64,000 bases of DNA from Acanthaster planci (taxonomy: Eukaryota). A model generated the notes under the pieces. The model ran no database searches. It saw only the letters and a program-made list of their open reading frames with translations, and was not told the DNA's origin. The stretch covers positions 3,715,159-3,779,158 of the forward strand of contig NW_019091359.1 of assembly GCF_001949145.1 (NCBI RefSeq), in the 5' to 3' direction. This document shows, piece after piece, positions 1 to 55,200 of the stretch (positions within the stretch are counted from its first letter, which is position 1; each line of letters starts with the position of its first letter). A program made the position numbers and the translations under genes.

Positions 1-1212
1 CTTGTTCAACGTTGAATGTCGAACGTCAAACGAGGAACGAGGAACTAACTTCACATCGGTGACATTTATTATGTTGCTGGAGTCTTTTTGTTTGTTTGTT
101 TTTCTTATTAGGTTCCTTGTTCATTTGTGTTAATTGTTCTGGGGACACACACTGACAAGCTTGGTTTTGTTGGCTCCCTGCATTTCTTGGTGATGTTTGT
201 ACACATACTAACTGTTTTATCCTAATCTTTACTACATGCGGAAAGTGTTCACAGTAATTTTATGTACTTACAACTGTATATACATTTCAGAGTTGTAGAG
301 ACCATGAGATGAAATCAAGTGAAATAAAAGTAAATATGATTTTTTGCACAAGTGTTTCCCCAATATGCCCCCAAATGTCAAAATCTAACTCGGGTTGGAT
401 GACAGTCTTCATTACATTACGTAATGTGATATGGTCAGGGAGTCTACCTGGTCTAGCCCCAAATCTCGAATTTTCAAATGTCATGGGTATATACTCACGA
501 CATTGGAAAATTCCAGAAATCGGGGGGGAGGGGGGGATGTGTCCCTGTCACATCTGACGTATGATTTTGTAAGTTCAGAACACATTTTCTAATTTCCAAG
601 AGTGATGAATTTGATGCAAATTACCTGCCAAACAAATAGTAATAGCTTGAAATCAATTCCGGTGATATTTCCATTTCAAATAGCAACGGTCAAATGTTAC
701 AGGGACACAAAAGTCACATTTTTGGACCCCTGATTTAATGAATTACCTATATGCCATAGTGCATTAGGGCAGGACTTAGTCAAGCTAGGATAGGAGGGGT
801 CAAAATGAGGAACACACCGTACACTCACTAACAGTGGCACTGTACAGTACAAGCTCAATATATACACACATCACTAATTTCCATTGAATTGGTTTATTAG
901 CCATCAGACAGTGAAAGCATGTCCTAGAAGTCCAATTTATCAATATCAAAGCAATAACTGGAAACATTTAGAATTTTTGAAACCAGTATCATCAGTCATA
1001 GTTACACAGGACACAGGATGTTGAGTGATGTCCGGGATATGGAGCTCTTTCCCACTGTGTTTTCCACTGTGGGCCCCCTACAGCTATTTTAAGAGGTTTG
1101 AAGTTTGTTGACATTTTTATCCGTCATTTGAAACTTATTAATTCAGACTGCTGTTTGAGGGTTAAGTTTTGCATGACACTCTAAGGTTTTATTAATCTCT
1201 TTCTTGGAACAG

Positions 1213-2605
1213 GAATCAAGACAACAGTAATATATCCAGCAACAGAGCGTCACATAGAGAAGTACACTGATCAGGATGTTGCCTTGATTGAAGAAACCTG
1301 CGATGATTACTGCAACATCACACTGCCTTATCTTGAGGAACAGACCTTCAAAATACAGGTACATGTAATAAAGAGAAAACAGATCCCTGTTTCACCAGAA
1401 CAACCAAGGTTTAAACTACACTGCTTATTTCAAGTATTTGTTTTCAAGGCATTCTTAAATATCGTTACAAGGAAAGAAAGTTTCTGTAGAAGAGAGAGAC
1501 CATAGTTTCTATCATGACATCAGTGCAATGTTGTACTTATGAAGACTAAAGTGTCGACCCGTTTTATAAATATTGATTGTTAGATTGTATTTTATTCAGG
1601 TGAATATCTTTTTCCCCTGTCCTTCTGTTATCAGTGGGTCTACAATATTTTGGAGAAGAAAGCAGAGGAGGTTGAGCGTATTGTCTACGAGGATCCAGAC
1701 CATCAGGATGGCTTTGTCTTACTCCCAGACATGAAATGGGACAGGAAACAAATGGAAAACCTGTACTTGGTTGCTATCTGTCATAGAAAGGGTATCAAAA
1801 GCCTGAGAGACTTAAATCATCAACACCTGCCATTGCTGAGAAATATTAGAGACAAGTGCCAGGTTGGCTATTAGTTTTGTCGTCGAACTTTTTTTTGGAG
1901 GGGGGGCAAGCTTTTATCATCATACCAGTAAATGTAATGAATAAAGTAAATTATGCTGCTTTTTCATAATCTGAACACAAAGTGAGAACTGTGTTTTTTT
2001 TTCATGAAAAACAGAGATTAGGCAAGTGGTTCAGAAACTGAAACTTGGATACCAAATCCACTAACTGTGAATATAGGTATACTACTAGAAAAAGATGAGA
2101 TCACCAATACCACTCCTGAGGGGAAATATCATAATAAAGATGAATGCATTAAAATGCACACAAAGAAATAACCTTCATATTGGTTTTAAAAACATCCACA
2201 TTCCTAATGCCCTGCAGTCTCAAAACAAATCCCTTTCATAGTTTGGGGCTTTGGCGGACAATTTTTTGAAAAGGCACACATTCTCTTTTTTGTAGAATTG
2301 TAATGATGCTCACATTATTTCTTCATTTGCAGAAAGAAGTTCAAGAGAAATATTGCATAGCATCAGACCAACTCAGATTATACCTACACTACCAGCCCTC
2401 ATACTACCACCTTCATGTCCATGTGACTCACGTGAAATTTGACGCTCCAGGGTCAGGGGTCACAAGAGCACACCTTCTGTCAGATGTCATTGAGAACATA
2501 GAGCTCATGCCTGATTATTACCAGCGGAAGACACTGACCTGCGTTCTCAGAGAGAAAGATGGACTTTTGGCAAGGTTTAGGGAAGTGAGAGGCCAGAAGA
2601 AGTGA
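1213..2605 (+). CDS. DCPS: m7GpppX diphosphatase (scavenger decapping enzyme), last three exons: 1213-1358, 1635-1862, 2333-2605; 5' part lies outside the window
   Basis: Spliced translation [17 protein letters not shown]...[11 protein letters not shown]...[11 protein letters not shown]...[16 protein letters not shown]...[17 protein letters not shown] with the HIT motif; GT-AG boundaries in compatible phase. Confidence 0.96.
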
Positions 2606-6754: not shown

Positions 6755-9700
6755 ATGAGGTTTGGAGAGACTTCATTTTTAAGTAACATTTCTGACATGG
6801 GGGAGGTCACAGAGAAACGCCAAAAAAGCGAGCGCCCTCTGGCGCCACTGATTCGCGCCCCCAAAGTAACCACTACATTGCCACACCCACTCGCGAAGGC
6901 GACTTCATCCGTAGATGGCACCTCCAAGTTGGGACAACTCAAGCGACGAGAGAAGTTAAGAACAGTTCTTGCTATGATGGGCCGAAGCAGCAAGAAGACC
7001 ACGCGGCTACGGAACAGAGACGGAGAGCCAAAGACGGACAAATCTACACCACGGTCGCTGCTTGCGGAGCATGTGCAAGGTAGTCTCGATGAAGATGGTT
7101 TGCAGTTGATGAGAAGCCCACACCGACGTGGAGCTATTGCTGACGGGAGGCTGCCGATCAAGAGCCCTCGGCTTGATACGGAGAAAAACAATAGCCGGCC
7201 AGAACCTCCTATCAGAGTAAATGTTACTATCTGCTCTTCTGAAATTCTGTGCCCTAATGGGTGGATCTTAGCGATAAGAATTAAATGATTTTAAAAGTGC
7301 AATAAATTGAGCCCCAACAGAGTAATGTGTGACTGTCCTGTCTGAGGATAGTGCATCATTTTGTACACTTTCGTTGAGTCCATGGATGTAGGCACTAGAT
7401 ACAATTTGAATGTCTGGAAACAAGACTTGTAATAACTCCCTTTTTCCTTCATGAGCTTTCACCAATGACATGTATACGTGCATTCTGACATGTTCACCAT
7501 TGGTCCTTGAATATTGTAGTACATAGCAGTTCGTAACACTGGAACTTTATTTCTTTGCACACAGTTAAGAAAATTTGGAAAACTACATACAATGGCAAAA
7601 ATCATTTTGCTTCTGCTACGCATGTGCAGGACATACATTCTGACGTAAGTAATTAGCCTCGGTACGTGGGTTGCAAAACAAATTCGTTTCTGTCATTTAT
7701 TGACAGTACATGTAGATGCCGGGTCTCCCTTAGTTATGAAGGATGGAAGAGGTATTTGTTTTTATTTTTAAATCGATCAATCCACATAGAAGGTTCTATT
7801 CGCCGTACGGAAATTTTCTCCAGGTATTCTTGTCAGTGCTTGAATTACTGAAAACACACTATGCTTGGAGTATAATTGGAAGTACACGTATCTCCTCACA
7901 AGCCATCTTCAATAGAGATCTACACATTTAGAGTGAAATCAGTTTGTTTAACATAGTTGTACAACCAGTTGAAATAGTTTCGATAAAGTGATGAAAATTG
8001 TGAATATTTTTTTCCTCTGAAATCCTGCTCCCTTTCTGCCTTTATACAGTGAAAATGACGCCAAGATGGTGAAGTTATTCAGTGCAATAGATGCAGCGCA
8101 GGCCGGAGACAAGTACAAAATTCGCGGGGATCTACTCTTCGATGTGACGATGTTCCGAGCCAAGAAACAGGTCTGCGTAGTTCGACAGTATTTGAATATT
8201 TTATTGACTGATAACTTTTAATGTACACTGCTCTTTTCAAAATGCAAATTTACATTCACAAGGCCAAACATGATAATCAATTTTAACAACAGAGTTGAAA
8301 TTGTTTTCTGTGCCAAATTCATCTGATTTTCTCAACATCAATTTGATCATGCCGTTTTAGAGTATTTTATACCTGTTTCGTGTGACTTGTCTTTAATTGT
8401 TTTCTTGACCCTTTTTCCTCAGAACAAAATTTCCAGCGAAACCAAGCGAGTTTTGAAAACATCACCACCTGTACGCACAGAAAAGGATGTCCATCACGTA
8501 AGGCAACTATGGACGACAAAGATATTTGTCCAACATGTCAAGATCTGCTACAAAGCAATTTGAAATCTCTATATGTCCACGGGATCCGCAGAATCAATGG
8601 GTCATAGGTCCCATTACTGAACAAAATGAATGCCTTAAAAAAGGTGTATTTAACTTCCCCTGCACTCGATACGAGACATGTCTGGAATACGTGTTTTTTC
8701 TTTTGTTTGTGAAGATTCTTTTGAATGTTTGATTGGCAATAATGATTGTATGATATTAATCAATTCAGTGTATGATATTAATCAATTCANNNNNNNNNNN
8801 NNNNNNNNNNNNNNNNNNNNNNNNNNNNNNNNNNNNNNNNNNNNNNNNNNNNNNNNNNNNNNNNNNNNNNNNNNNNNNNNNNNNNNNNNNNNNNNNNNNN
8901 NNNNNNNNNNNNNNNNNNNNNNNNNNNNNNNNNNNNNNNNNNNNNNNNNNNNNNNNNNNNNNNNNNNNNNNNNNNNNNNNNNNNNNNNNNNNNNNNNNNN
9001 NNNNNNNNNNNNNNNNNNNNNNNNNNNNNNNNNNNNNNNNNNNNNNNNNNNNNNNNNNNNNNNNNNNNNNNNNNNNNNNNNNNNNNNNNNNNNNNNNNNN
9101 NNNNNNNNNNNNNNNNNNNNNNNNNNNNNNNNNNNNNNNNNNNNNNNNNNNNNNNNNNNNNNNNNNNNNNNNNNNNNNNNNNNNNNNNNNNNNNNNNNNN
9201 NNNNNNNNNNNNNNNNNNNNNNNNNNNNNNNNNNNNNNNNNNNNNNNNNNNNNNNNNNNNNNNNNNNNNNNNNNNNNNNNNNNNNNNNNNNNNNNNNNNN
9301 NNNNNNNNNNNNNTGTGTGATATTAATCATTTCAGTGTGTGATATTAATCAATTCAGTGTGTCAACGTGTGTTAAAATTGATCTGGTTCTTCACTCTTAG
9401 GTCCAAGTTGAGCTTCAGCAAATGGAGTTTATAACCAAGTATCCAGTCCACATGCAACGGAGTTTGATCCGTGCTGGGGCGTTTGAGAGTTATGAAACGG
9501 GCCGAGTTATCATCCGACACGGTCGGCGACCTTATGCATTTTATCTCGTTCTGGGAGGCTCAGGTATAACCTCGATTCATTCCATGACGCAACGGAAATA
9601 CATGTACTTTTCCTGTCTACCCCAGGACTTAATTTCAAACTATCAAAGGGGCAATAAATGAGTACAAATTTTAAAGGAACATTTATGCACTTCAAGCCTG

Positions 9701-15699: not shown

Positions 15700-16374
15700 T
15701 TATTTTCCGTAGATGTCAGAAAGTTCTGTCTCTATCTTTGTTGCCAATTCATCAATTTTGTAGAAAGGTACTTCTTCTCGAAGTTGTACAAGTGCTTCAG
15801 CGCGAGATTCATCATCATCGTCGGCGACATCAAAAGATCCATCCTGAATGAATTGCCACAGGTAACGAAAGCTCTCAGCATTTCTTCTATAAATCGTGAA
15901 CACATTACGACTTGGGTTTGACTCGGAACGATACTTAACCATTTGAGCCAAGAACGACTTGACAAACGTTTTGTTCCCCATCAGGGTTGAACGACTTTCT
16001 GAAAAACACTTTCCTTCAACTATGATGTAAATCCTTGCAGGATCAAAATCTGGCCGATTGTTTATCACAGCTTCGGAAAGGCGCCAGTTCTGGTAGAACG
16101 CAGCCTCTGATTCCAGCAGACCAATGTCTTTGAAACCCTTCGGCAGGTCTAGTCGATCATGACGCATAAAACCAAGCACGTAGCGGAAGAGTGGCCCATC
16201 TGCGTCAATTAAAAAGTTCCCCTCCTTGTCTTTTGCACATCTCTGATTGAAGTTGCCGCTGAACATACGTCCTAGTCTAGATTCCAAGTCGCTCCGCAGT
16301 GTACTCAAGGTGGTAAAGTAAACCTGCCCGCCTACATTCAGACCTATAAATGTAGATTGTTGGCAACTTTCCAT
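15700..16374 (-). CDS. KCTD-like BTB/POZ (T1-type) protein with two tandem BTB domains, intronless; likely start at MESCQQ
   Basis: IGLNVGGQVYFTTLSTL..DLESRLGRMFSG...DKEGNFLIDADGPLFRYVLGFMR...L.LP.GF...LLESEAAFYQ, followed by a second unit IYIIVEGKCF.ESRSTL...RNAESFRYLWQFIQ...LREEVPFYKI. Confidence 0.9.
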   Translation of the reverse strand: MESCQQSTFIGLNVGGQVYFTTLSTLRSDLESRLGRMFSGNFNQRCAKDKEGNFLIDADGPLFRYVLGFMRHDRLDLPKGFKDIGLLESEAAFYQNWRLSEAVINNRPDFDPARIYIIVEGKCFSESRSTLMGNKTFVKSFLAQMVKYRSESNPSRNVFTIYRRNAESFRYLWQFIQDGSFDVADDDDESRAEALVQLREEVPFYKIDELATKIETELSDIYGK

Positions 16375-17125
16375 GCTCAGAAATAGCAACTTGCAGATCA
16401 CAGATTCCAATATGCACGCGTACATACACCTGTGAAGTTTAGGTGATAAGCATAGAGGAAGTCGATTGTGAAAGCTGCCAACAAGGATGAGGTGTATAGC
16501 CTGTTGAACTTTGACCCTCCTGACCGGTATCGTCTGTTTTGGTTTCCTTGTTCAGACCAATTAAAATGCTTAACATTAAGAAAACAAACTCGACCCGAAT
16601 GGCTGTTATGTGCTCACTGTATATAACTCGCTATTTAAGTTCACATCCTCTTTTCAATTTGCCAAGGACATCGAAATTCCGGTTTTTTTTCCACTCTGTG
16701 ACGGGAGTTCTTGTGGAAGTTGAGCAGTACATGTACGTGTTTTCAATTTGAAACTTTTTATTTAATAAAAGTAGATAAAAAGCAAAAGTCATTGTTCTGA
16801 GAGTTCTTTGAATTTTATTTACTAGGCTCGTTCAAGAATGTCATTGGCATTTATAAGCCTAATACACCACAGAATATATCTGTGAATTAAACTTTTATAC
16901 TTTATTATTATTTTTAATTTTATTCTCGCCATCTTTGTGCATTTTGTCTTTGTATGATTAAAGTTTTTTTTGGAGTTAACTGTGAGAGTCCTGTAGCTTG
17001 TAAGGGGAATCAGCGGCATCCACTTTATAAAGAAATAAACTTTTTTAGCTACACAGATTTGAAGTGTATCAATATTTCTTATGAAAAAAAGAAATTGCAT
17101 TTCAGTATACATTTTCTTATCAAAT

Positions 17126-17908
17126 TCAATATGAACTCTCAAAACCAGTAAACCCGTCCTCAGTCAGGACCTGCTCTTCTTTTCCCGTCAGGGCGGGATA
17201 GAAGATAGAGATACAGTTAGAATATTCCTCGTGGTTTTCCAGTATGTGACGGTCATGATCATTTAAAAGGACGTTGGTGCCATTCCCTGCATCCACCTTA
17301 GAGCTATGGTTTACCCAGGTACCACTGGTATCCTGCCATTTGTAGGTGACTCGCCCAGAGGTGTAGTACACACTTTCTGTGTGGTGTTGATGGGCCAATT
17401 TAGAAGACGTTACAGGGTTTAATCGCGTTTTGCTGATACCCAGAGGAAGCCCGTCTGGTTTGAGGAGGTATTGCCAACTGTGGCCGTTTCCCCAGTCGAC
17501 ATCTCTTTCAGTACCATCAATTTCTGCTAAGCTTCGCACAACTGCCAAAGAGGTATAAACCAACTCATTGTCTGGATAGTAGACTACGAACACACGCATG
17601 GGGCCCTCTGCTGACACTGTCAATTCGTAGATCACATCGGAGGACAGTGCTATCACAGTATCAGGGCAAATATCCCGCTTTTCCCCACCAGCGCTAGCTT
17701 GAAACTTCCCCCTTCCGCTAATGCAGTAGTAGAAATGAAGGCTTCTCTTGTTGTCAGGTGATCTGAAGGGAACAGTGGAATTGGCCTGGACACGTGCCTC
17801 ATATATAGTGAAGTCACTGAAGTCTTTCTCAGTGGTCAGCTGGACTCCGCTGAGTGCGCTGTTTGGAAGGGTACTTTCGGGAAAATCGACAGAATGTGTA
17901 ATCAGCAT
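17126..17908 (-). CDS. ectC: Ectoine synthase (EctC)-like double-cupin protein, copy 1 (divergent active site), 260 aa
   Basis: C-terminal half VVRSLAEIDGTERDVDWGNG..YLLKPDG...HTESVYY...HDRHIL...PALTGKE follows the EctC pattern; intact ORF with an acceptor-like site just upstream of the ATG. Confidence 0.85.
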   Translation of the reverse strand: MLITHSVDFPESTLPNSALSGVQLTTEKDFSDFTIYEARVQANSTVPFRSPDNKRSLHFYYCISGRGKFQASAGGEKRDICPDTVIALSSDVIYELTVSAEGPMRVFVVYYPDNELVYTSLAVVRSLAEIDGTERDVDWGNGHSWQYLLKPDGLPLGISKTRLNPVTSSKLAHQHHTESVYYTSGRVTYKWQDTSGTWVNHSSKVDAGNGTNVLLNDHDRHILENHEEYSNCISIFYPALTGKEEQVLTEDGFTGFESSY

Positions 17909-18849
17909 GTTTAAAGATAAGCTGAAGGAAAAAAAAGGACAAAAAGTGAAAATAAGATAACTAATTCACAATCATGTCTGTGCATTTACTAAAAAAGAAT
18001 TGCCACGATGATACATGTATAGTGTCAATACCATATTTAAATTATACATCTCCATACTACAGAAAAAGTGTAGTATCAAATTGCTTCAGGTTAGTGATAT
18101 TTTGAATACCTTGAAATACAATTCTCCTTGTTAACTTACCTCTCTGACCTCAGCATACAAAATGTAAAAAGGAATCCTGCATTTATGTTGGTCAAAGGCA
18201 GTCTACGAGCCCAAAGCTAGCTGAATTTAATGCGTAGGTAAACCAATAATTATGGCAGACACCAAAATATGCCTCCGTACGAGGTCTATTCAGTTCAACT
18301 AATACTGACTTCGTACGTGAAAAGGGCCAAGGTTCAGTTTCATTGTAACAAAGGTCAAAACTCTGTTTGCCTAACTTAATATAGTTGGGTTTTATTCTTA
18401 TTTTTCGAGGCAAGGCATGCTAACAATGCCGTTCAAAACGTGTAGATTCTTTTATTTGAATAGGCGAGGACGCGAAGCGTCCAAGCCCAACGCCTCCTCG
18501 CCCATTGGAATCAAACAATTTCCACATTTTGAGTCGTTTCTCTGATTTACACCACGTTTCCCTTTACTATTGTTGCATGATAGAAGAACTTTTTTACTAT
18601 GCTTTGAGCCGAGATGAATTCCATCCATTATCCATCTTTGGACCCCTGTGTAAATCTGCGTGTACATAAAAGTCTCACTTTTGGCCCAAGTAGTTAAATT
18701 GTATAACTCTTCGCCTAGCTGCACAACTGTTTTTTTTTATTCTCTTGCAAGCAAGATGCGTGCTTACCAAGTCATACACATGCAGTCAGCAACCATCGGT
18801 GGATCGTAGGGCGCACAAGTTAAGTTATCAAATGCTACCGCTATGACTT

Positions 18850-20300
18850 GTGGACTTTTTATTTTATTTTCTAAGTAACAAAAACTCAAACTCCCTGTTT
18901 TTCACACTTTTTACCCAAAAGGAGGTTGCTGATTGTATAAGCAAATTTCCTTCTGGGAAGGTGCCTGGTTGTGATGATCTAAGTCCCTGTGTCATCAAGC
19001 AGGCAAGGAACGCACTTGCTAAGACCTTGGCTGATATCTTTATCAAGGTTCTCACAGCTAGAGTGTTTCCTGATTGTCTACGAAAAGCCAAAGTAATACC
19101 GATTTACAAAAAAGGTTGTAAGCACGATGTAACTAATTATAGACCTATTTCTGTCCTATCTACATTTTCAAAATTGTTTGAAAAGCTTATTTATCAGAGA
19201 TTATTATCTTTCTTCACACGACATTTTTTTCTGAATCACAAAATTGGCGATATTATATGTTCTTAGTAATGTAATGCGATTGACAAACAGAACTTCTCCA
19301 TTGGTGTATTTCTAGACTTATCAAAAGCTTCTGACACTGTCCATCATAACATTTACTAAAAAAAATTAGAGTATTACGGAATTTGTGGTACAGCTCTAGA
19401 CTTATTAAAAAGTTCTCTCTGTAACAGAGAGCAGTGCATATCGTTTAAATCTGTGAATTCCAGCAGTCGGGGAGTCAATGAACCCCACACAAGGCAGTCC
19501 TTGTGTGGGGTACCACAAGGTTCTAATTGAGGACCATTGCTATTTCTACTTTACATCAACGACAGATTATAAAGTACCTCAAACAGTACCTCAAACAGTG
19601 TTGTATACACACAATAATGTAAATGAAGCAATCCAAAAAAACTAATTTGGAACTTGCTAAAATTAATGAGTGGCTTTAGCAAACAAATTGTGTATTAATG
19701 CCCTCAAATCACATTACATAATATTTGGTTCACATCAATTTAAGTATTCACAAAATGTCCACTTGATCTTAAACAATTCGAGGTTGACCCAAGTACAAAA
19801 TTTCTGGGTGTAACACTGGATGAAAATCATACTTGTAAATGTCACATCGATGAGGTAGCTTTAAACAATACCCAAGAAAATAGGCATTATGAATCGCTTA
19901 AGGCTTTGTCTTCTGGATAAGGTTTCATTAAGATTGTATAATTCCTTAATTTACCATATTTGAATTATGCTATTATTACCCGGGGCAGCTCGCCATCTAG
20001 ATGTAACAGATTTCTTACTCAACAAAAGCGAGTGGTTCGTGTAATTACAAATGCCGGTTCCCGTGATCATTCTGCTCCATTGTTTTCTAAATTAAATCTT
20101 TTACAGTGTAATAACCTATATCACCTGAATCTAGCGAAGTTAAAAATTAAGGCATGACCTACTCCCTCCCTGTCATAAAGCCTGTTTTACCTTGACATCA
20201 ACCATCCATGATTTCAATACACGAAGTAGTTCAAAGGGAAACCTGTACGTCCAGTTTAGCAGGACGTCAATGTCTATCTTTACCCGTCTTTGTAAAGAAA
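18850..20300 (+). mobile_element. Decayed, 5'-truncated non-LTR retrotransposon (CR1/L2/jockey-like reverse transcriptase)
   Basis: FPDCLRKAKVIPIYKKG...NYRPISVLSTFSKLFEK, FLDLSKA.DTV, GVPQGS..GPLLFLLYIND and KFLGVTLDE motifs broken by stops and frameshifts. Confidence 0.9.
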
Positions 20301-21890: not shown

Positions 21891-22676
21891 TTAACAGTCC
21901 ATGCAAGCTTCGTACCCAGAGAACCCGCCTTCAGTAATCTTATGATTCTCCTTTCCAGTCAGAACAGGATCGAAGATACAGATACAGTAGGCGTCTTCGT
22001 CATGGTTCTGCAATACGTGACAGTCATGCATATTCATCAGGTAGTTGGTACCATTCTCAAGTTCTGTTTTCGAGGTCTCATGAACCCAATCACCGTTGGT
22101 ATCATACCACTGATACGTAACTGTCCCTGCAATGAAGTATACACTCTCAATGTGGTTTAAATAGCCTAGTCGGGTAGATGTCTTCGGGTAAACCCAGGTA
22201 TTGTGAACACCCAAAGGGAAGCCATCTTGTTTTATGAGATATCGCCGACTGTGCCCGTTTCCCCAGTCGGTATCCCTGTCCGTGCCAACTATCTCAGACA
22301 GACCTCTTACTACAGCCAGCGATCGGTAGCCCATCTTGGCGTCTGGATAGTAGACTACAAATAGACGCATACCGCTCTCCGCCGACACTGTCAACTCGTA
22401 GGTCATATCGAAAGACAGTGCCACCACAGTGTCCGGGCTGACATCTCGTTGATCTCCTCCAGGCTCCCCACACGTTCCTTTCCCACTGATACAGTAATAG
22501 ATGTGGACACTATTCTCACTCTCAGGTGATCGAAGAGGAACGGTAGACTTGGCTGGAATGCGTGCCTCATATGTCTTGAACTTATCGTAATCCTTGTCAT
22601 CGGTGAGTTGAACGCCGATGAGGGCGCTATTTGGTAGAGTTATTTCAGGTAGATTGGATGAATGACTCACTTTCAT
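21891..22676 (-). CDS. ectC: Ectoine synthase (EctC)-like double-cupin protein, copy 2 (most canonical), 261 aa from MKVSHS
   Basis: VVRGLSEIVGTDRDTDWGNGHSRRYLIKQDGFPLGVHNTWVYPKTSTRLGYLNHIESVYFIAG...GTNYLMNMHDCHVL...CIFDPVLTGKENH retains the EctC hallmarks SRR, YxNHxE, Y..H..H and PxLTGxExH. Confidence 0.92.
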   Translation of the reverse strand: MKVSHSSNLPEITLPNSALIGVQLTDDKDYDKFKTYEARIPAKSTVPLRSPESENSVHIYYCISGKGTCGEPGGDQRDVSPDTVVALSFDMTYELTVSAESGMRLFVVYYPDAKMGYRSLAVVRGLSEIVGTDRDTDWGNGHSRRYLIKQDGFPLGVHNTWVYPKTSTRLGYLNHIESVYFIAGTVTYQWYDTNGDWVHETSKTELENGTNYLMNMHDCHVLQNHDEDAYCICIFDPVLTGKENHKITEGGFSGYEACMDC

Positions 22677-22782
22677 GATGTGTCCTGTAGGAAGCAAAGC
22701 AAAATTGACGTGTAGCTCATATTGAATTGAGCGACAGAAATTCCTATGCTGAATCTGCTGTTCCTGACGGGAATTTTAAAAC

Positions 22783-24174
22783 TATGAAATTCCATACCTG
22801 CCGTCGCCCGTCGTGCGTCGCCTTTTGCTTTTTGTTGTGTCCCAATTCTGCCATTTCCAAACATGCCATTTTCCGTCGCCCGTCGTGCGTCGCCCGTCGC
22901 GCGTCGTGTGTCGCCCGTCGTGCGTCGCCCGTCAAATACGTTGCATAGGACGTGCAAAAGCCGGGGTTTAACAAATGACAATGTGATGATTCTATTCACC
23001 TCTAAGGATCTTTTCCCAATAAGGCAAGTATAAATCCCACATGCAAAGCATATACTAGTCCCATAATTTATGCCAATAATGCTAGCTTACCTCTGCCCCT
23101 TGACAAGAAAATGTCCCCTTTCTCAGAAACCAACCAAATGTTTTTGTGGGGAAAACACTTTCAACAAAAATGTTCAGACCAAATTATCCACAGTCTAATT
23201 CTAATTTGCATACTTTAAAAATGTGCCGACTTGTTTTAATCAAATTCTAGAAAGAAATGTGCCAACCAATACTGATATTTCACTTTGTCCTCTCAATTTC
23301 ACCTTGAAATCCAGAAATATTAGTCAGTGCTGTGGATAACAAACTGTTTACTAAATGTATTAGGGGGAAATTACCACTTGGTCTAATTTTCACAAAATAT
23401 GACGTGTTGGTTTTTGTGGGTGTGTATGCCATGGTGGATAGACTAACGAGAACAGGTTGTCCAGCATATCAGCATTAATTATGGGTCTAACTAGTAACGT
23501 TACTGTTCAAAAGACTTCTATAAGCCAACCTGCAACTCAGGTCATGTCTAATTTGGAGTATACAGCAGATTTCATCATAGGTATACCTGCCTTCAAAATA
23601 ATGTTGAATCAATTCGTCTCTTATTCAAAATATTAAGGAATAAAATATTGTAAATAATTTATTATTTACATTCAGTTAGGTGGGATATCGTGCAGGGACA
23701 GACAGATATATTACATAGACTATAGGCCTAACGTCAGGCCGTACACGAGTAACTAAATTATCAAGAAAAACAATCTACCCTAACAAAAGTCTATTTTGTT
23801 AATTTATTTATGGAACCAAAAATTGGATTTTTTCATATACACGTCACTTTACCGATGTCAGCCTTTAAAAATGAAAGGATATTATTTCTTCTTTCAAGTG
23901 GAGTTCGACGCAACTGCAAAAACGAATACATCTTCTAGTTCTACTGCTAAAATGAGTGTCGGGCATGGTGGATCGAACGAACAAGTACATGTGAAACGGT
24001 CAAGGGTCAAAGTTAAAAATAACAATGCGCAAGTGTGACCCCCCCCCAAAAAAAAACCCAAGGGCGACGGACGACGGGCGACGGAAAATGGCATGTTTGG
24101 AACTGGTAAATGGGAGAGTTAGGACACAACAAAAGGCAAAAGGCGACGGGCAACGGCAGATTTGGAATTCCATA
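22783..24174. mobile_element. Non-autonomous DNA transposon with ~110-bp GC-rich TIRs, IS3EU-like, inside the predicted 5'-UTR intron of ectC copy 2
   Basis: 22783-22895 is the inverted complement of ~24062-24174; ends TATGAAATTCC...GGAATTCCATA; flanks TAAAAC/GAAAAC (5/6 match); CGTCGCC subrepeats. Confidence 0.75.
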
Positions 24175-25961: not shown

Positions 25962-27411
25962 TATGGTGTTCTATTCTATCGCCATTTTGGCGTCGCGTCG
26001 TACCGTTGCTCCGACGCCACGACGCGACGGCACGACGTCGTGCCGTCGGGTCGTGCCGTCGCCTCCTTTCTTATTGAGTTCATGCTAAGCTAATTTCGTC
26101 GCGTCGTGCCGTCGCGTCGTGCTATTTCATGTTAATGTCGCATCGTGCCGGCGCGTCGTGCCGTCGTATCGTGCCCTCGTGGCGTCGCGTCTTGCCGTCG
26201 TGGCGTCGCGTCGTGCCGTCGCGTCGCCCGCCATTGCAAGATTTTATACATTGTGGATTAGGCCGTCGCGTCGTGCCGTCGCGTCGTGCCGTCTCGTTTG
26301 TGCTGCTAGCAGCTTTGCATTCTGGGATTGTCAATAAAGGGCGGATGTCGATAGTGAGCTTGTTAATTGAACGATGCAAGATGTCGGGGATTTACACATT
26401 GCTCGATTCTCAATTGCCTCTTCTCGTCAATAATATCCTTTTCACAATGTTTAACTTTTTAAATGCATGTTTATAAAATAATTACCGTAATGACACAACT
26501 AGCTTCCATTATGTTTATTCGGGGCTTTTTCATGGGTNNNNNNNNNNNNNNNNNNNNNNNNNNNNNNNNNNNNNNNNNNNNNNNNNNNNNNNNNNNNNNN
26601 NNNNNNNNNNNNNNNNNNNNNNNNNNNNNNNNNNNNNNNNNNNNNNNNNNNNNNNNNNNNNNNNNNNNNNNNNNNNNNNNNNNNNNNNNNNNNNNNNNNN
26701 NNNNNNNNNNNNNNNNNNNNNNNNNNNNNNNNNNNNNNNNNNNNNNNNNNNNNNNNNNNNNNNNNNNNNNNNNNNNNNNNNNNNNNNNNNNNNNNNNNNN
26801 NNNNNNNNNNNNNNNNNNNNNNNNNNNNNNNNNNNNNNNNNNNNNNNNNNNNNNNNNNNNNNNNNNNNNNNNNNNNNNNNNNNNNNNNNNNNNNNNNNNN
26901 NNNNNNNNNNNNNNNNNNNNNNNNNNNNNNNNNNNNNNNNNNNNNNNNNNNNNNNNNNNNNNNNNNNNNNNNNNNNNNNNNNNNNNNNNNNNNNNNNNNN
27001 NNNNNNNNNNNNNNNNNNNNNNNNNNNNNNNNNNNNNNNNNNNNNNNNNNNNNNNNNNNNNNNNNNNNNNNNNNNNNNNNNNNNNNNNNNNNNNNNNNNN
27101 NNNNNNNNNNNNNNNNNNNNNNNNNNNNNNNNNNNNNNNNNNNNNNNNNNNNNNNNNNNNNNNNNNNNNNNNNNNNNNNNNNNNNNNNNNNNNNNNNNNN
27201 NNNNNNNNNNNNNNNNNNNNNNNNNNNNNNNNNNNNNNNNNNNGGTGAAAAGACGCGACGCGACGGGCCGACGGCACGATGCGACAGATCGACGGCACGA
27301 CGCGACGGCACGACGCGACGGAGCCGTCGTAGTGTCGCGTCGTGCCGTCGCGTCGTGCCGTCGGGGCGATGGCACGACGCGACGCTAATTTGGCGGGAAT
27401 AGAACACCATA
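25962..27411. mobile_element. Non-autonomous IS3EU-like DNA transposon spanning the N gap at 26538-27243
   Basis: Ends TATGGTGTTCTATTC...GAATAGAACACCATA; perfect 6-bp TSD TGATTG; arrays of CGTCGTGCCG/CGTCGCGTCG in inverted orientation. Confidence 0.8.
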
Positions 27412-27418
27412 TGATTGG

Positions 27419-27649
27419 TATGGTGTTCTATAGCCGCCAAATGTGCGTCGTCCCGTCGCTCCGACGCGACGCCACGTGACGGCACGACGCGACGCTTCGA
27501 CGCGACGACAGGACGGCACGACACAAACACAGCATAACAGTAATGAGGAAAGAGGTGACGCCACGACGCGACGGGACGACGCGACGGAGCTGTTGTAGTG
27601 TTGCAGCGCTAGGGCGACGGGACGACGCGACGCAACTTTGGCGGCCATA
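27419..27649. mobile_element. Short adjacent second copy of the same TATGG family
   Basis: Starts TATGGTGTTCTATAGCCGCCAAA and ends TTTGGCGGCCATA; same GC subrepeats; no clear TSD. Confidence 0.6.
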
Positions 27650-29858
27650 CCACTGACATTGTGCTCGGGCCCGCCTAACAACTTGATCAGCCTGATTCTT
27701 GTTCTAGTTCTGGTATTCGGAAGGACATCGTCATGCCGCAACAATTTTAATGCATATTCATATATTTCCATGGAAAGCGCCAATAGCAGCTCACGCTACA
27801 CAACAGACTCATCCATTTTATACATAGCGATGTCTCCATTTGATTAGTGCCAGTTTCTTTCAACTCTTGCCCCAATTTAATACCGTGGGTGATGCCTGAA
27901 CTAAGATTATTTGTCACCTGATTTAATTAAGAGTCGCCAGGGAATCTTTGGGCAGGGAACTAGACTAGTTGTTAAACTGCACGCGGAACGGCACCGCGTA
28001 CGCATATTGCAAGGAAGGTGGTCTACACCCAGTCAATTACCGACTTGATTTAAAGTCTACTGCGCCGTCAGGAAAGCTTCTTGCCACTAGCGGCACGTAT
28101 AAAGCGAGCACTAGTACAGAGCTAGAGAGAGAGCATGTACCTTATACGCGTACTTAGACTTGAACAGTAATACATAATGCTATACGATTTCTGCAAGGAG
28201 CCCTGTAGTGCATGTTATGTCACGTACGTACATGTACATGTACAGTGTATAAGTACTGTGTACATGTACACACACGTGAGTACATGTACATGTTCACAGC
28301 GTTTGCAAACCTGACAAAACTTTCTGACCGGGTTTGTATCACAAAATACGGTGCAAAGAATATCAAGAATATCACAAGAGCCATTTGCAACCCTCAAACA
28401 ATAAGAAAAGTAAAGCAAACGCCGAAACTTACAAGTTTTCAAGACATCAAGTCGGCCTAGCATAAGCTCCGCAAAACTTCTGGTGCTAATGGCAAAACGG
28501 CCAGGTCAGCACGTCAGTCTATGGGCTGTTCCGTTGTTCTAGTTTTACTCCCTTTGTGTAACTTTTAGGTAAGGCCTTGCTCACGCTAATCCCATTACCA
28601 GTCAGTAAAAAGAACGAATCACCCTAGTTCTAACCCAGGTTTTGTAGTTTAATTTCCTAAGCGGGTCCTCGGTACAATAAATGGGGTGAATTGACCAGAA
28701 GTTAGTCACCAGTGCTCTGAGATTGGAATGGCACAGCCGAAACTTTCGAGCAAAAGCACGTACCAAACATAAACTTGTCGCCAGTCGCTAGAGTACCCAG
28801 TTCACCCACATTGGAAAATATTATTCAAAATCGAAAGGAATGGCAATCAACTTAGTAACCAATCTACAGGGTCACGTAAACCTCAATAAACCTCTTACAG
28901 AACATTAATGACAAATATTTCATAAGTCCAATATTTCTAGCATGTCAACCACAACAGAATAGCAACCTGTGCATTTATGTACAAAGATTATAGCACCGTT
29001 TATAAAGTCTATGTGTAATTATTTCCCAAACCAACTGTTAGTTACATCTAGTATGATCAACGGTATAAACAGGCCATGCAACTGCACACACTGATTGAAA
29101 ATAATACCGGAGTGAAACCAAGACAGGTAAGCCTCGCTTATAGGTTACGGAGCGCGCGACGTCGGGGAATCAGGCATGCAAATAAACTTCCGCGCGTAAA
29201 ACACATTCGTAGGTGAACTAGGTGAAATTCAGTGTTTGTAAATTATCATCATTGGAAATTTGCATAATTGTCTGTGAAAATTGCATTACTTGTACGTCTG
29301 TGATGCACAGGCTACTGAAAGCTCCACACTCATATAGGCCTATATGTGTTTACAAGGATACCAAAACGATTGCATTTGCGCATGAATATCACATTGTTAA
29401 ATTTGGTTATTTATCATGCATTAAACATTGTGCTAATCAACTGACAGAATCTGCTGACAGCTCACCAATGAACAACTTGTTACGGGTTTATGGCCAATGG
29501 CTCCAACTAAAAGGGCAAATGCGATCAGTGACAAAGTCAATTTTGACTGGTAACCTGCGCATTGAACATATATTGGGCGTCATGGAAAATTGGCCAGTGG
29601 TTTACAAATTGCCGTTGACCAAACTTGGCCGAAGTTAATGTCCTGGTTGCATAAATTTTAAAGCATGTATTATAACTTAATTAGTCTTTCATAGGCATAC
29701 AAACTAATTACAGGAAAACAAGGCAAAAATGTTCGGTTCGAGTATATGGGTAGTTAAATTCTATAACAAAAACCAAATACGTTGAATTTGGCTCACTATG
29801 ATTGAACAACCTTTTATTTCAAGCTATTATTTTCCTATATTGATTTTAATTTCTCGGT

Positions 29859-30629
29859 TCATGTCTTGTATCCCAAGAATACGCCTTTTGTTGGCTGGTA
29901 CTCTTCTGCCCCAATAAGAACAGGGTCGAAGATACAGATGCAGTAAGCGTCTTCGTCGTGATTCTTCAGCACATGACAGTCATGCATATTCATTAGGTAG
30001 TTTGTGCCATTATTGCAATCCGTTTTTGCATTTGCATGAACCCACTCGCCGCTGGTATCTTGCCACTGGTATGTTAACTTCCCCGCAAGAAAGTACGCAC
30101 TCTCGATGTGGTTCTCATAGTGTAACCGGGTAGATGTCTTTGGGTAAACCCACGTGTTATAAATACTCACGGGGAAGCCATCTTGTTTAATGAGATATCG
30201 CCGGCTACGACCGCTTAACCAGTTTATATCCCTGTCCGTGCCAACTATCTCAGACAGACCTCTTACTACAGCCAGCGATCGGTAGCCCATCTTGGCGTCT
30301 GGATAGTAGACTACAAATAGACGCATATCGCTCTCCGCCGACACTGTTAACTCGAAGGTCATATCGAAAGACAATGCCACCACAGTGTCCGGGCTGACAT
30401 CTCGTTGATCTCCAGACTCCCCACACGTTCCTTTCCCACTGATACAGTAATAGATGTGGACACTATTCTCACTCTCAGGTGATCTAAGAGGAACGGTAGA
30501 CTTGGCTGGAATGCGTGCCTCATAAGTTGAGAACTTATCGTAATCCTTGTAATCAGTGAGTTGAACGCCGGTGAGGGCGCTATTTGGCAGGGTTACTTCG
30601 GGCAGATCGACCGAGTGGATAACTTTCAT
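29859..30629 (-). CDS. ectC: Ectoine synthase (EctC)-like double-cupin protein, copy 3, 256 aa
   Basis: VVRGLSEIVGTDRDINWLSGRSRRYLIKQDG...HYENHIESAYF...GTNYLMNMHDCHVL...CIFDPVLIGAEEY; clear paralog of copy 2. Confidence 0.9.
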   Translation of the reverse strand: MKVIHSVDLPEVTLPNSALTGVQLTDYKDYDKFSTYEARIPAKSTVPLRSPESENSVHIYYCISGKGTCGESGDQRDVSPDTVVALSFDMTFELTVSAESDMRLFVVYYPDAKMGYRSLAVVRGLSEIVGTDRDINWLSGRSRRYLIKQDGFPVSIYNTWVYPKTSTRLHYENHIESAYFLAGKLTYQWQDTSGEWVHANAKTDCNNGTNYLMNMHDCHVLKNHDEDAYCICIFDPVLIGAEEYQPTKGVFLGYKT

Positions 30630-52200: not shown

Positions 52201-55200
52201 GACCGATGCACTCATGACAAAACTAACTTACTTGTGACTCATTTATCAAACCTTAAAATTTCAAAAAATCTTGAATACCGCGGATGATTCTAAATAGTGC
52301 GTATCGTTTACCAATCAAAGAACGTGAAATCTGTCGACCCTTTCCAAACACACATGGGGGTCGACAGATTTCGCGCAGTGTGATTGGTCAACGTGTTGCA
52401 AACTCTTGGTGGCGCACTTTTGTGGATCACCCGTATTATATTGTTTTCGGAAAACAAATTTTCAGCTTTCTTGTTTTAACATGACAAACCACAGTTTTTG
52501 GTTCTCGTTTGATCGACACATTGACTCATTTGGCCCATTTTGTTAAATTACTATACGAACTTTGAGTTTGTAAAAATAATACATTAAAGCTGAATTCCAA
52601 GATTGCCATCAACAACTTGGGTAAAATTAACTCAGAACAGATCCTTGAGCAATGTAAAAAGTATTAAAGGCCTCATTATTATCATAATCTGAGGTTATCA
52701 CTCACGATTTTCGGTTCAATATCCAGGCAGTTGGCGGTCAGATGGACGTCAAGGTCTTCCTATACGGGTTTATGACTCCTAAAAGCGTGCATGGCATACA
52801 TGTTCATACCTACGGCGACTTGGGAAACGGTTGTGGGTCAGCTGGCGGTCATTATAACCCGGGTGGAAACAATCACAGCGCCCCCTACGACAAAGATAGG
52901 TATGTTTGCACTCAACTGAAGGCAAGTTCTAGAACGGAAACATTGTAGAAGGGTTTTTCTGCCATTTCGGGGTATTTTAACATGTTGGCGGTATTTTTGT
53001 GCGGCATTGCGAAGGAATTACCCACTGGATATGTTTATGTTTATTCAAGATCATGGAAAATCCTAAAAATGGCTGATGGATAAGAATGACTGATAGTGGA
53101 TGTCGAAAATGCGTTTACTCAAAATGTTACGGTATGGCTATGGAGCGTCAAAAGTGCACAACCCCATTTTCTGCTGATAGATTTTCTGGATTTTAGACTT
53201 TTCGTAAAGCTTTTTCCAAAAACACAATTTTCCGCTAGCAAAAAATTGGATTTTACTTTAACAAGTCTTGTGGCGAGTGGACAACCAAAAACTTCAAATT
53301 CAAACTGGCAAAATTACTGTCATACTCCAAAAGTGGACAATTCCATTTTCTCATTTTCTGCCAGTAGATTTTTGGGTTTTTTTAAAGTTGCACCATACTT
53401 TTTCAAAAATCCCATTTTTTTACTGGCAGAAATTTGAATTTTACTCAGACGACGGCGAGGTGGTCCAAAAGTGGACAAGTTGAAAATTGAAAGGACACTT
53501 TTCTCCCTACGTTGAAATATAACAGTCTTAAGAAGATTGGCATCACCCGACCCAGGAAAAAAAATAATGTAATGTGGACGAAAGTTTGGAAGCGGCTGCC
53601 TGGGAAGTGGAAGAGTGACAGTCCTTCGTAGTACAGCAACTTGTAGAGCCAGTCCTATTGCATTAACCAACCGGTCGTTGACGGGCATCAGGCGTCATTT
53701 GGACACTCCCTTGTTATTGGCCTTTATCATGCAACTTGTATTTCCATCTCTGTATAGCCGATTTTGTGAAAAAGATTGGGCCCTTTTTTAAGATATTCAG
53801 ATATAAGATTTGTTATACAATCCACCACCCATGTATTTCACAGTTCATGCATCCGACGACTGCTCTGGGCCGTCACTTGCAAGTTTGTGTTTTCATTGCG
53901 TTAATATGTCACATTGACACTTTGAATCATTTGTATTAATAGTATGACCCAGGCCTCCACTATATAACCACCCACTTGTATTTGATGACTTGAACAAAGA
54001 TTTGAATGATAAATATTAAATTAAATCTTTGATGTCATATCAGTGACCGACTGGTGCACTGACTGAAAGATTTATTGGCTGAATACGTGCTTTGGAATTT
54101 GTGGGGTGTCAAAATTAATTCAGCAAGTTCACGTTGCATTTTAATGTTTATCATTTTACTTTCTCTATTTTCCCCTTTTTGAACCTCTTGGTTAACTTGA
54201 TTAAACAGCACTTAGCTTCTTCTCTTGACATGACATTTTTTCAATTCAGACCTTTTTTCGGTCCACAACAAATTCAATTATACAACTGGACAGGACATGG
54301 ACACGGTGGTTTATTACAGCTAGCATCTTTTAGGGGCATATCACCATGCGCTCAGTTATTAAAAATGTAATTGTTCGACGGAAAGCCGCCACTGTCATTC
54401 TAATTACACGGTGCACTGGGAAGCCGTAGCGTTAACATAGAGCCTAAAAGTAAAAGGTCACGCAGCGACCTTCCGGAACCCTTGCGCGATCTAATCTTTG
54501 GAAAAATAATTCCTTACTGGAACCACCCCCATGAAACACTCATGTTAGAATTTTACCTTTGTCTTCCTCAAGTAATATTTTGAAAGAGTCACCTGGAGAT
54601 GGGTAAAAACGAATTGAATAACGACCTTTCACGTCCAGCGATGTCGTATCTAGGTCACCGTTGCATGAACAACATGCACGTTTGTTTTCACTCGCCGTGC
54701 TGTCTTGAAAACGAGATTGCACAACCTTGCAAAGATTTTACCTACCTGCAGTCGATGTGTTCCAGATTCTGTTGTGCTGACATCATGCAGTTGTTGTCAG
54801 CAAAGGTTAGATAAAATATTAGAATCTTTCGTGAAAGTAGAATATTGCTTTATGTTTATTACCTTATAAATTATCAAAATGTGTAAAATATTTTAATCTG
54901 TTTTTATTTTGGTTTTCACCCACAGACTAATATTCATTTGCAAACGAGACTGTCGTATTGCGCTGTTCTTCATGTATTTTAGATTTTCGGAAGTGATGGG
55001 TCAATTTTTGGCAGGCTATTTCTCTTTTAGGTCAAGTAATTTTTCAGTTTCTATAAATTATATCAACAAATATTTTTCGATTTTTAAAGAAGAAACTGAA
55101 CAAAATATATTACAAATTCTAAAGTTCTGCACGTTATTTTTCCTATCTAAGGGTTCAGGAAGCGCGCCATCAGGCTCTATTGGCTGCCCATCTTCCCAAG

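Follow-up and report, generated by a model that had tools for sequence, protein, structure and literature searches.

Background

Ectoine synthase (EctC; Pfam PF06339), for which structures are available from P. lautus (PlEctC; 5ONM, 5ONN and 5ONO) and S. alaskensis (SaEctC; 5BXX and 5BY5), is a protein of ~ 130 aa that forms a head-to-tail homodimer with two active sites, in which residues 1-5 of each subunit pair with beta-VIII of the partner (PMC6344544). Ten residues make up the core of the enzyme, among them Trp21, Glu57, Tyr84 and His92; the Trp21 residue was present in all of 437 cluster-encoded EctC proteins, and in some orphan (solitary) EctCs the Trp is shifted by two residues (PMC6344544). 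The orphan EctCs described in the passages cited here are single-domain proteins, and their function is stated there to be open (PMC5924519, PMC6344544). Genes resembling ectC are also in print for the animals Branchiostoma and Saccoglossus (the latter ALR88593; PMC4987115, PMC5924519), and the animal 'ectoine synthase-like' genes of Harding 2016 (PMC4987115) belong to the same gene family as the tandem genes described below. The sections of that paper on these genes make no mention of a doubling, a dead half, bacterial tandem relatives, or cnidarian and annelid members, and the corresponding passages of PMC5924519 do not speak of a tandem. The word 'ectoine' does not occur in the main text and two spreadsheets of PMC4729200, the rest of whose supplement may discuss these genes, and no description of a tandem EctC was found in the titles and abstract beginnings among the literature matches listed.

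Here we describe a starfish gene whose product resembles EctC: both halves share its fold and the order and register of its strands, and the C-half also has its iron ligands, most of its substrate residues and its lid. Unlike the homodimer, the product is a tandem in one chain with one predicted site. The C-half also differs from EctC in having Gly at the position of Trp21 with a Trp upstream, and an insertion, and no ectAB link was seen among the genes scanned.

Tandem genes in the Acanthaster planci window

The window, by which we mean the whole 64,000-nt stretch of Acanthaster planci DNA that was analysed (contig NW_019091359.1), carries the focal gene on the minus strand at 21891..22676 (ATG at 22676, stop codon at 21891-21893), as an intronless coding sequence for a 261-aa tandem EctC-like bicupin. 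The N-half (residues 1-111; 22344..22676, minus) is an EctC-derived cupin without iron ligands and without the lid, a linker of about residues 112-120 (22317..22343, minus) lies where EctC has its lid, and the C-half (residues 121-261; 21894..22316, minus) is an orphan-type, Trp-shifted EctC domain with the lid intact (PVLTGKENH). By the cut-off of the Pfam model Ectoine_synth (PF06339) the protein is a member of the EctC family, the match covering residues 122-246 only (94.2 bits vs a cut-off of 27, E 9.5e-27). A splice acceptor is predicted from sequence alone 8 nt 5' of the ATG (22685..22700, minus), with no spliced read seen; in eight RNA runs the gene had a low read depth, near that of the flanking background, and zero splice joints.

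Two paralogues are found on the same strand. One (17126..17908, minus; 260 aa, 58% identical to the focal protein) is 99.6% identical to LOC110983737, an NCBI model of Acanthaster planci, and is preceded by a GT-AG intron (17922..18139, minus) covered by RNA reads in two of four runs (1 and 6 reads). The other (29859..30629, minus) encodes 256 aa and is 82% identical to the focal protein, and tblastn with five queries detected no further full copy in the window. These lengths agree with a preliminary description of the locus, which had put the proteins at about twice the ~ 130 aa of bacterial EctC, and both paralogues also consist of two EctC-derived cupin halves. The C-site of the 17126-17908 paralogue is degenerate, with SWQ for SRR, His for Y52 and Val for Y84, the same SWQ and His being present in a Patiria protein (P0006); this paralogue may be doubly altered or non-catalytic, though it is spliced. 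Purifying selection acts on both halves: dN/dS between paralogues was 0.06-0.23 over both halves in the five of six comparisons that could be computed, with dS near saturation in some, and 0.12-0.23 for the N-halves. Between the two closest paralogues dS was 0.23 in the N-half vs 1.02 in the C-half (22344-22676 vs 30297-30629 for the N-half), and the lower value suggests that the N-half underwent gene conversion or unequal crossing-over.

The host DNA around the focal gene contains a BTB/POZ ORF and exons of DcpS and Sod_Cu, as identified with Pfam. Bacterial contamination is ruled out by these eukaryotic neighbours, by the spliced 17126 paralogue and by orthologues in other starfish. The BTB/POZ ORF, which is KCTD-like, adjoins the cluster at 15700-16425 (minus); the DcpS exons are at 1185-2602 (plus) and the exon with a Cu/Zn SOD domain is at 52688-52945 (plus). 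Interspersed GC-rich repeat copies occur on both sides of the focal gene (22790-22940, 24090-24160, 26080-26540 and 27243-27800), an ORF that by eye is LINE-fragment-like and has no Pfam match lies between the paralogues (18850-19266), and there are assembly gaps at 8790-9313 and 26538-27243. Among the 123 of 146 window ORFs with at least 72 aa there was no Pfam match to EctA or EctB, a size limit that short exons would escape.

Ancestry of the N-half

A profile of six N-halves, three from the window and three bacterial, was searched against 177,635 PDB sequences. It matched P. lautus EctC at E 1e-10 (45 bits), with the next cupin at E 0.027 (18 bits) among the 44 sequences listed; S. alaskensis EctC, which is only 15% identical, was absent among those 44. 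Aligned with canonical EctC in hhalign, 45 N-halves scored 99.3% (E 3.5e-20, over residues 1-111), 19 N-halves 95.3%, and 19 named animal N-halves alone 98.2%. A profile of animal N-halves only gave median scores of 21.4 bits on 41 canonical EctCs and 28.9 bits on 24 EctCs of the W-G type (see below), and the best non-EctC ORF in a control of 685 ORFs from 30 Cupin_2 loci reached 13.9 bits, the top three of the control ORFs being themselves EctC. With the first N profile the weakest EctC had 10.7 bits, which is under the 13.9 bits of that control, although the two profiles were slightly different.

When the N-half was folded alone (pLDDT 86.4), Foldseek placed PlEctC at ranks 1-3 for the model. 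In VIA-align SaEctC ranked first (Z 13.2, rmsd 2.5, 104 aligned), in a tie with TM1287 at 12.6, and the structure-based identity was 27% to PlEctC, none of the other 49 rows exceeding 19%. Fold similarity by itself does not separate EctC from other monocupins (Z 11.7 vs 12.7; 13.2 vs 12.6). The commonest N-terminus of the tandems is an EctC-like M-I-V-R start, with R4 in 19/46. The segments YYCISGKG, VSPDTVVAL and MRLFVVYYP, earlier read as remnants of the EctC scaffold, do occur in that order and in register with YCIxGxG, PG..YAL and MR..VFNP of EctC. Judged by these comparisons, both halves are EctC-derived, and the tandem likely arose when an orphan-type ectC was duplicated long ago. The internal duplication proposed in the preliminary description is supported by the PDB profile search, hhalign, Foldseek and VIA-align. 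The likeness between the N- and C-half is weak, with hhalign giving 5% in one comparison and 96% in another, and the two are less like each other than each is like EctC, so that a fusion of two different ectC genes would fit too.

Residues of the two sites

The residue counts that follow are taken from 46 tandems, some of them nearly identical to one another and two of them branching apart from the rest. In the focal N-half, S23 and R25 of EctC are replaced by G21 and Q23, E57 by H58, Y84 by V85 and H92 by Y93, confirming the earlier observation that this half is without SRR, NHxE and the Tyr/His ligands. Throughout the family, the N-halves have His for Glu57 in 35/46 (Glu in one), an aliphatic residue for Tyr84 and a mixture at His92 (His in two), and they retain YCxxGxG in 24/46 and R104 in 40/46. 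The C-terminal lid of EctC is missing from the N-half, where a short linker takes its place; 11-17 residues separate the equivalents of positions 109 and 124 in all 46 tandems.

The focal C-half retains S143, R145, T160, Y172, E177, Y212, H220 and F235, and with E177/Y212/H220 has the full predicted set of iron ligands, none of the three being present in the N-half. Among the 46 C-halves of the family the Glu is kept in 44, the His in 42, S23 in 45, R25 in 42, T40 and Y52 in 41 each, and F106 in 42. Retention is complementary, the N-half having YCxxGxG and R104, and the C-half the catalytic set and the lid; mean pairwise identity is 28% for N-halves and 38% for C-halves. At the equivalent of Tyr84, 16 of the C-halves have Tyr and 17 have Phe, and all six members of the bacterial type are among those with Phe. 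The Y85F variant of SaEctC has 29% activity and 9% iron (PMC4795551, Table 1), which, with Phe so often at this position, makes a 'live' site uncertain for part of the family. The residue pattern fits the proposal of one dead and one live site, but the Tyr iron ligand is present in 16/46 C-halves only.

The Trp21 position is Gly in 46/46 C-halves, and three residues upstream there is Trp (33) or Phe (8), together 41/46. Of the features that the preliminary description assigned to the C-half, the catalytic residues and the insertion hold up and the loss of YCIxGxG is only partial, Y180 being found in 40/46, G184 in 46/46 and the second Gly in 22/46 tandems. The insertion, near residues 190-201, gives 24 residues between G184 and G209 vs 16 in two family members, and the PDB alignments place 7-8 inserted residues in the focal C-half.

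Packing of the two halves

Bicupins with a dead half are common, and many of them mimic a monocupin dimer and retain one metal site. In the full-length AlphaFold model (pLDDT 91.4, pTM 0.90) the strand series of the two halves match, and the two cupin barrels are predicted to pack in one chain as an ordinary bicupin. The model aligns with the bicupin 1sfn end to end (Z 22.8, rmsd 2.9, 220 aligned); for the C-half aligned to 5ono the rmsd is 1.4. In the domain arrangement of the whole chain it is like AllE/ureidoglycine aminohydrolase (1SFN, 4E2Q and 1RC6), pirin and the vicilins (Z 17-23); unlike these bicupins, to which it is 7-15% identical, it has a separate origin and other metal ligands.

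Residues 2-5 form a strand in the full model (pLDDT 92 for the first block) and are unstructured in the N-half alone (below 50 for residues 1-3). An internal dimer would be expected to show just this dependence of strand 1 on the C-half. The beta-1 segment and the beta-VIII equivalent of each half are hydrophobic throughout the family, and the linker varies little in length. We envision that the first strand of each half would pair with the beta-VIII equivalent of the other half, as in the head-to-tail dimer of EctC, that the N-half would stand in for the second EctC subunit as a structural scaffold, and that the C-half would hold the sole predicted active site, binding Fe(II) through E177/Y212/H220.

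Distribution and phylogeny

The first homologue search returned 20 tandem relatives, the named ones being from three starfish, a brittle star and amphioxus. A profile search of 1.84 billion representatives gave 492 matches at E <= 0.001, with many full-length tandems among the best 150; among the 30 that were looked up, the named tandems were from Owenia, Glandiceps, Saccoglossus, Nematostella and Mesorhizobium (WP_210168689.1). The homologue query with the C-half gave only two matches; with an alignment as the query, a single Owenia paralogue was gained, besides bacterial EctCs. In one alphaproteobacterial order, 50 of 401 genomes had a match and three had a full tandem. What by its sequence is the same tandem is thus found in five animal groups (echinoderms, amphioxus, hemichordates, an annelid and a cnidarian) and in alphaproteobacteria, and did not originate in starfish. 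The cnidarian, annelid and bacterial tandems rule out a duplication confined to starfish or to deuterostomes, and the cnidarian and annelid members argue against an acquisition by deuterostomes only.

The C-half tree was built from 58 active-type domains (LG+G4), leaving out the N-halves and a further 18 rows that were long or redundant, and with a bootstrap that was not fully settled. In this tree 26/28 C-halves, bacterial and animal, formed one clade (100/98) among single-domain proteins of the W-G type, and together with these were separate from canonical EctC (100/95); hhalign of the C-halves likewise gave E 4e-50 with the W-G-type singles vs 1e-39 with canonical EctC. The C-halves in this respect are like the orphan EctCs (PMC6344544, PMC5924519), the single-domain W-G-x-G proteins being equated with the published orphans by the Trp shift and a remark on Ser104 rather than by a published sequence list. 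In a quick tree of 108 rows, with 13 ids left out, 30/32 N-halves were in one clade (SH-aLRT 99). The proteins P0041 and P0052 fell outside the main tandem clade in both trees and may have a separate origin; they are tandems of about 300 aa whose N-termini by eye are hydrophobic and signal-like. The bacterial tandem clade is in a polytomy with the animal tandems in the C-half tree, and the animals probably received an already fused gene from bacteria.

A second bacterial double EctC of 260-278 aa (P0073, P0057 and P0151) also has two EctC domains in tandem, but unlike the focal tandem it appears by eye to have E/Y/H and the lid in both halves. In the C-half tree it is an independent duplication, with a separate clade (100/100) on the side of canonical EctC. 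P0106, P0120, P0244-P0246 and P0249 are further members, mostly with both sites apparently intact, in clusters of up to 59 members. EctC appears to have doubled at least two times, perhaps three, with different outcomes. Other fusions were also noticed, with an arylmalonate-decarboxylase-like N-domain by Pfam (P0051) and, by eye, with C-domains that are formyltransferase-like (P0082 and P0110), EctD-like (P0112) and EctA-like (P0116).

Bacterial gene context

In 6/6 annotated loci, which are not independent lineages (L015, L016, L018 and L054-L056), the bacterial tandem gene is directly upstream of a Lys/Orn N-monooxygenase gene, and in all three of the long loci IucA/IucC and 2OG-Fe(II) oxygenase genes follow. 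The clusters span L015:5998-12658, L016:6001-11305 and L018:3242-8246, and consist of the tandem EctC, the Lys/Orn N-monooxygenase, an IucA/IucC synthetase, a WelO5-like 2OG oxygenase and an MFS protein. Neither an acyltransferase among the genes scanned in these clusters nor ectA or ectB among the scanned neighbours of the tandem genes was found. The single W-G-type EctCs (L057-L065) have other neighbours, with a LysR regulator adjoining in 7/9 loci and an amidase in 2/9, which hint at a catabolic role for these singles.

Discussion

The reading that we favour, with a probability of about 70%, is that the starfish protein is one chain of two EctC-derived halves descended from a tandem of orphan-type ectC, in which the ligand-less N-half is likely a pseudo-subunit and the C-half has the sole predicted site. 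It is very improbable, and largely refuted, that the N-half is instead an unrelated cupin joined to EctC, or that the whole is an AllE-like bicupin converged on EctC motifs. Pfam and the ESM Atlas do put generic cupins first for a single N-half, AraC_binding (E 0.0024) outranking Ectoine_synth (E 0.21) among weak cupin-clan matches in the former and no EctC cluster appearing among the 10 matches listed in the latter; the profile and structure searches, however, single out EctC, which is also the best fit in the separate profile check of the N-half that the preliminary description had called for, and the M-I-V-R start is the commonest. Similarly, the best matches of the whole model are bicupins of the AllE/UGlyAH type, but these are only 11-15% identical. 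An N-half of EctC descent could also have a function of its own beyond that of a scaffold, such as a ligand-binding or allosteric pocket, although we consider this improbable. Positions that line the active site are now polar aromatics, Y36 in 32/46, H58 in 35/46 and Y109 in 28/46, with Y36 and H58 invariant in 17 deuterostome rows, and the N-halves are under purifying selection. On the other hand, the six bacterial-type N-halves mostly have Phe/Gln or other residues at the positions of Y36, H58 and Y109, the N-halves are less conserved than the C-halves, the lid is lost, and a filled core explains the bulky aromatics equally well. A regulatory role, which the preliminary description had also considered for the dead half, is at present speculative.

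For the pseudo-subunit architecture we further propose that the C-half would catalyse an iron-dependent cyclo-condensation of the EctC type, in which an amidine ring is closed and water is lost, on an N-acyl derivative of a diamino acid or diamine, or on an N-hydroxy diamine. Because no ectAB linkage of the clade was seen among the neighbours scanned, a substrate related to N-gamma-ADABA is more likely than N-gamma-ADABA itself. It is possible, though in our view doubtful, that a protein of this same architecture is a true ectoine synthase, or else opens the ectoine ring, with N-gamma-ADABA or dietary ectoine as its substrate. The focal C-half has 8/10 of the PlEctC core residues, its His at Asn38 is as in SaEctC, the shifted Trp is known in some orphans, and an orphan EctC has complemented an ectC mutant (PMC5924519); ring opening would agree with the minor hydrolytic activity of EctC. 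Weighing against this reading are the bacterial loci, with the N-monooxygenase gene next to the tandem and no ectA or ectB among the scanned neighbours, the 100.6 bits of the focal protein, below the cut-off of 128 of the NCBIfam EctC model PRK13290, and the report of bona fide EctB in only three further protists (Harding 2016, PMC4987115).

Considered as a family, these proteins define an EctC subfamily in which each chain has a single predicted site and to which belong animal ectC-like genes that were previously noted without analysis. The structural principle is already familiar among cupins and to that extent less surprising, but the EctC doublings with their different outcomes are a neat case for the evolution of a dimer into a pseudodimer. 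The fixed bacterial context of N-monooxygenase, IucA/IucC synthetase, 2OG oxygenase and MFS genes points to candidate substrates, and by analogy might carry over to the animal proteins. We tentatively suggest that the subfamily, which marine invertebrates ranging from cnidarians to amphioxus share with siderophore-like clusters of alphaproteobacteria, may make a cyclic amidine other than ectoine, that in animals it might represent an ancient pathway derived from bacteria, and that the Tyr/His pocket of the dead half may tune it.
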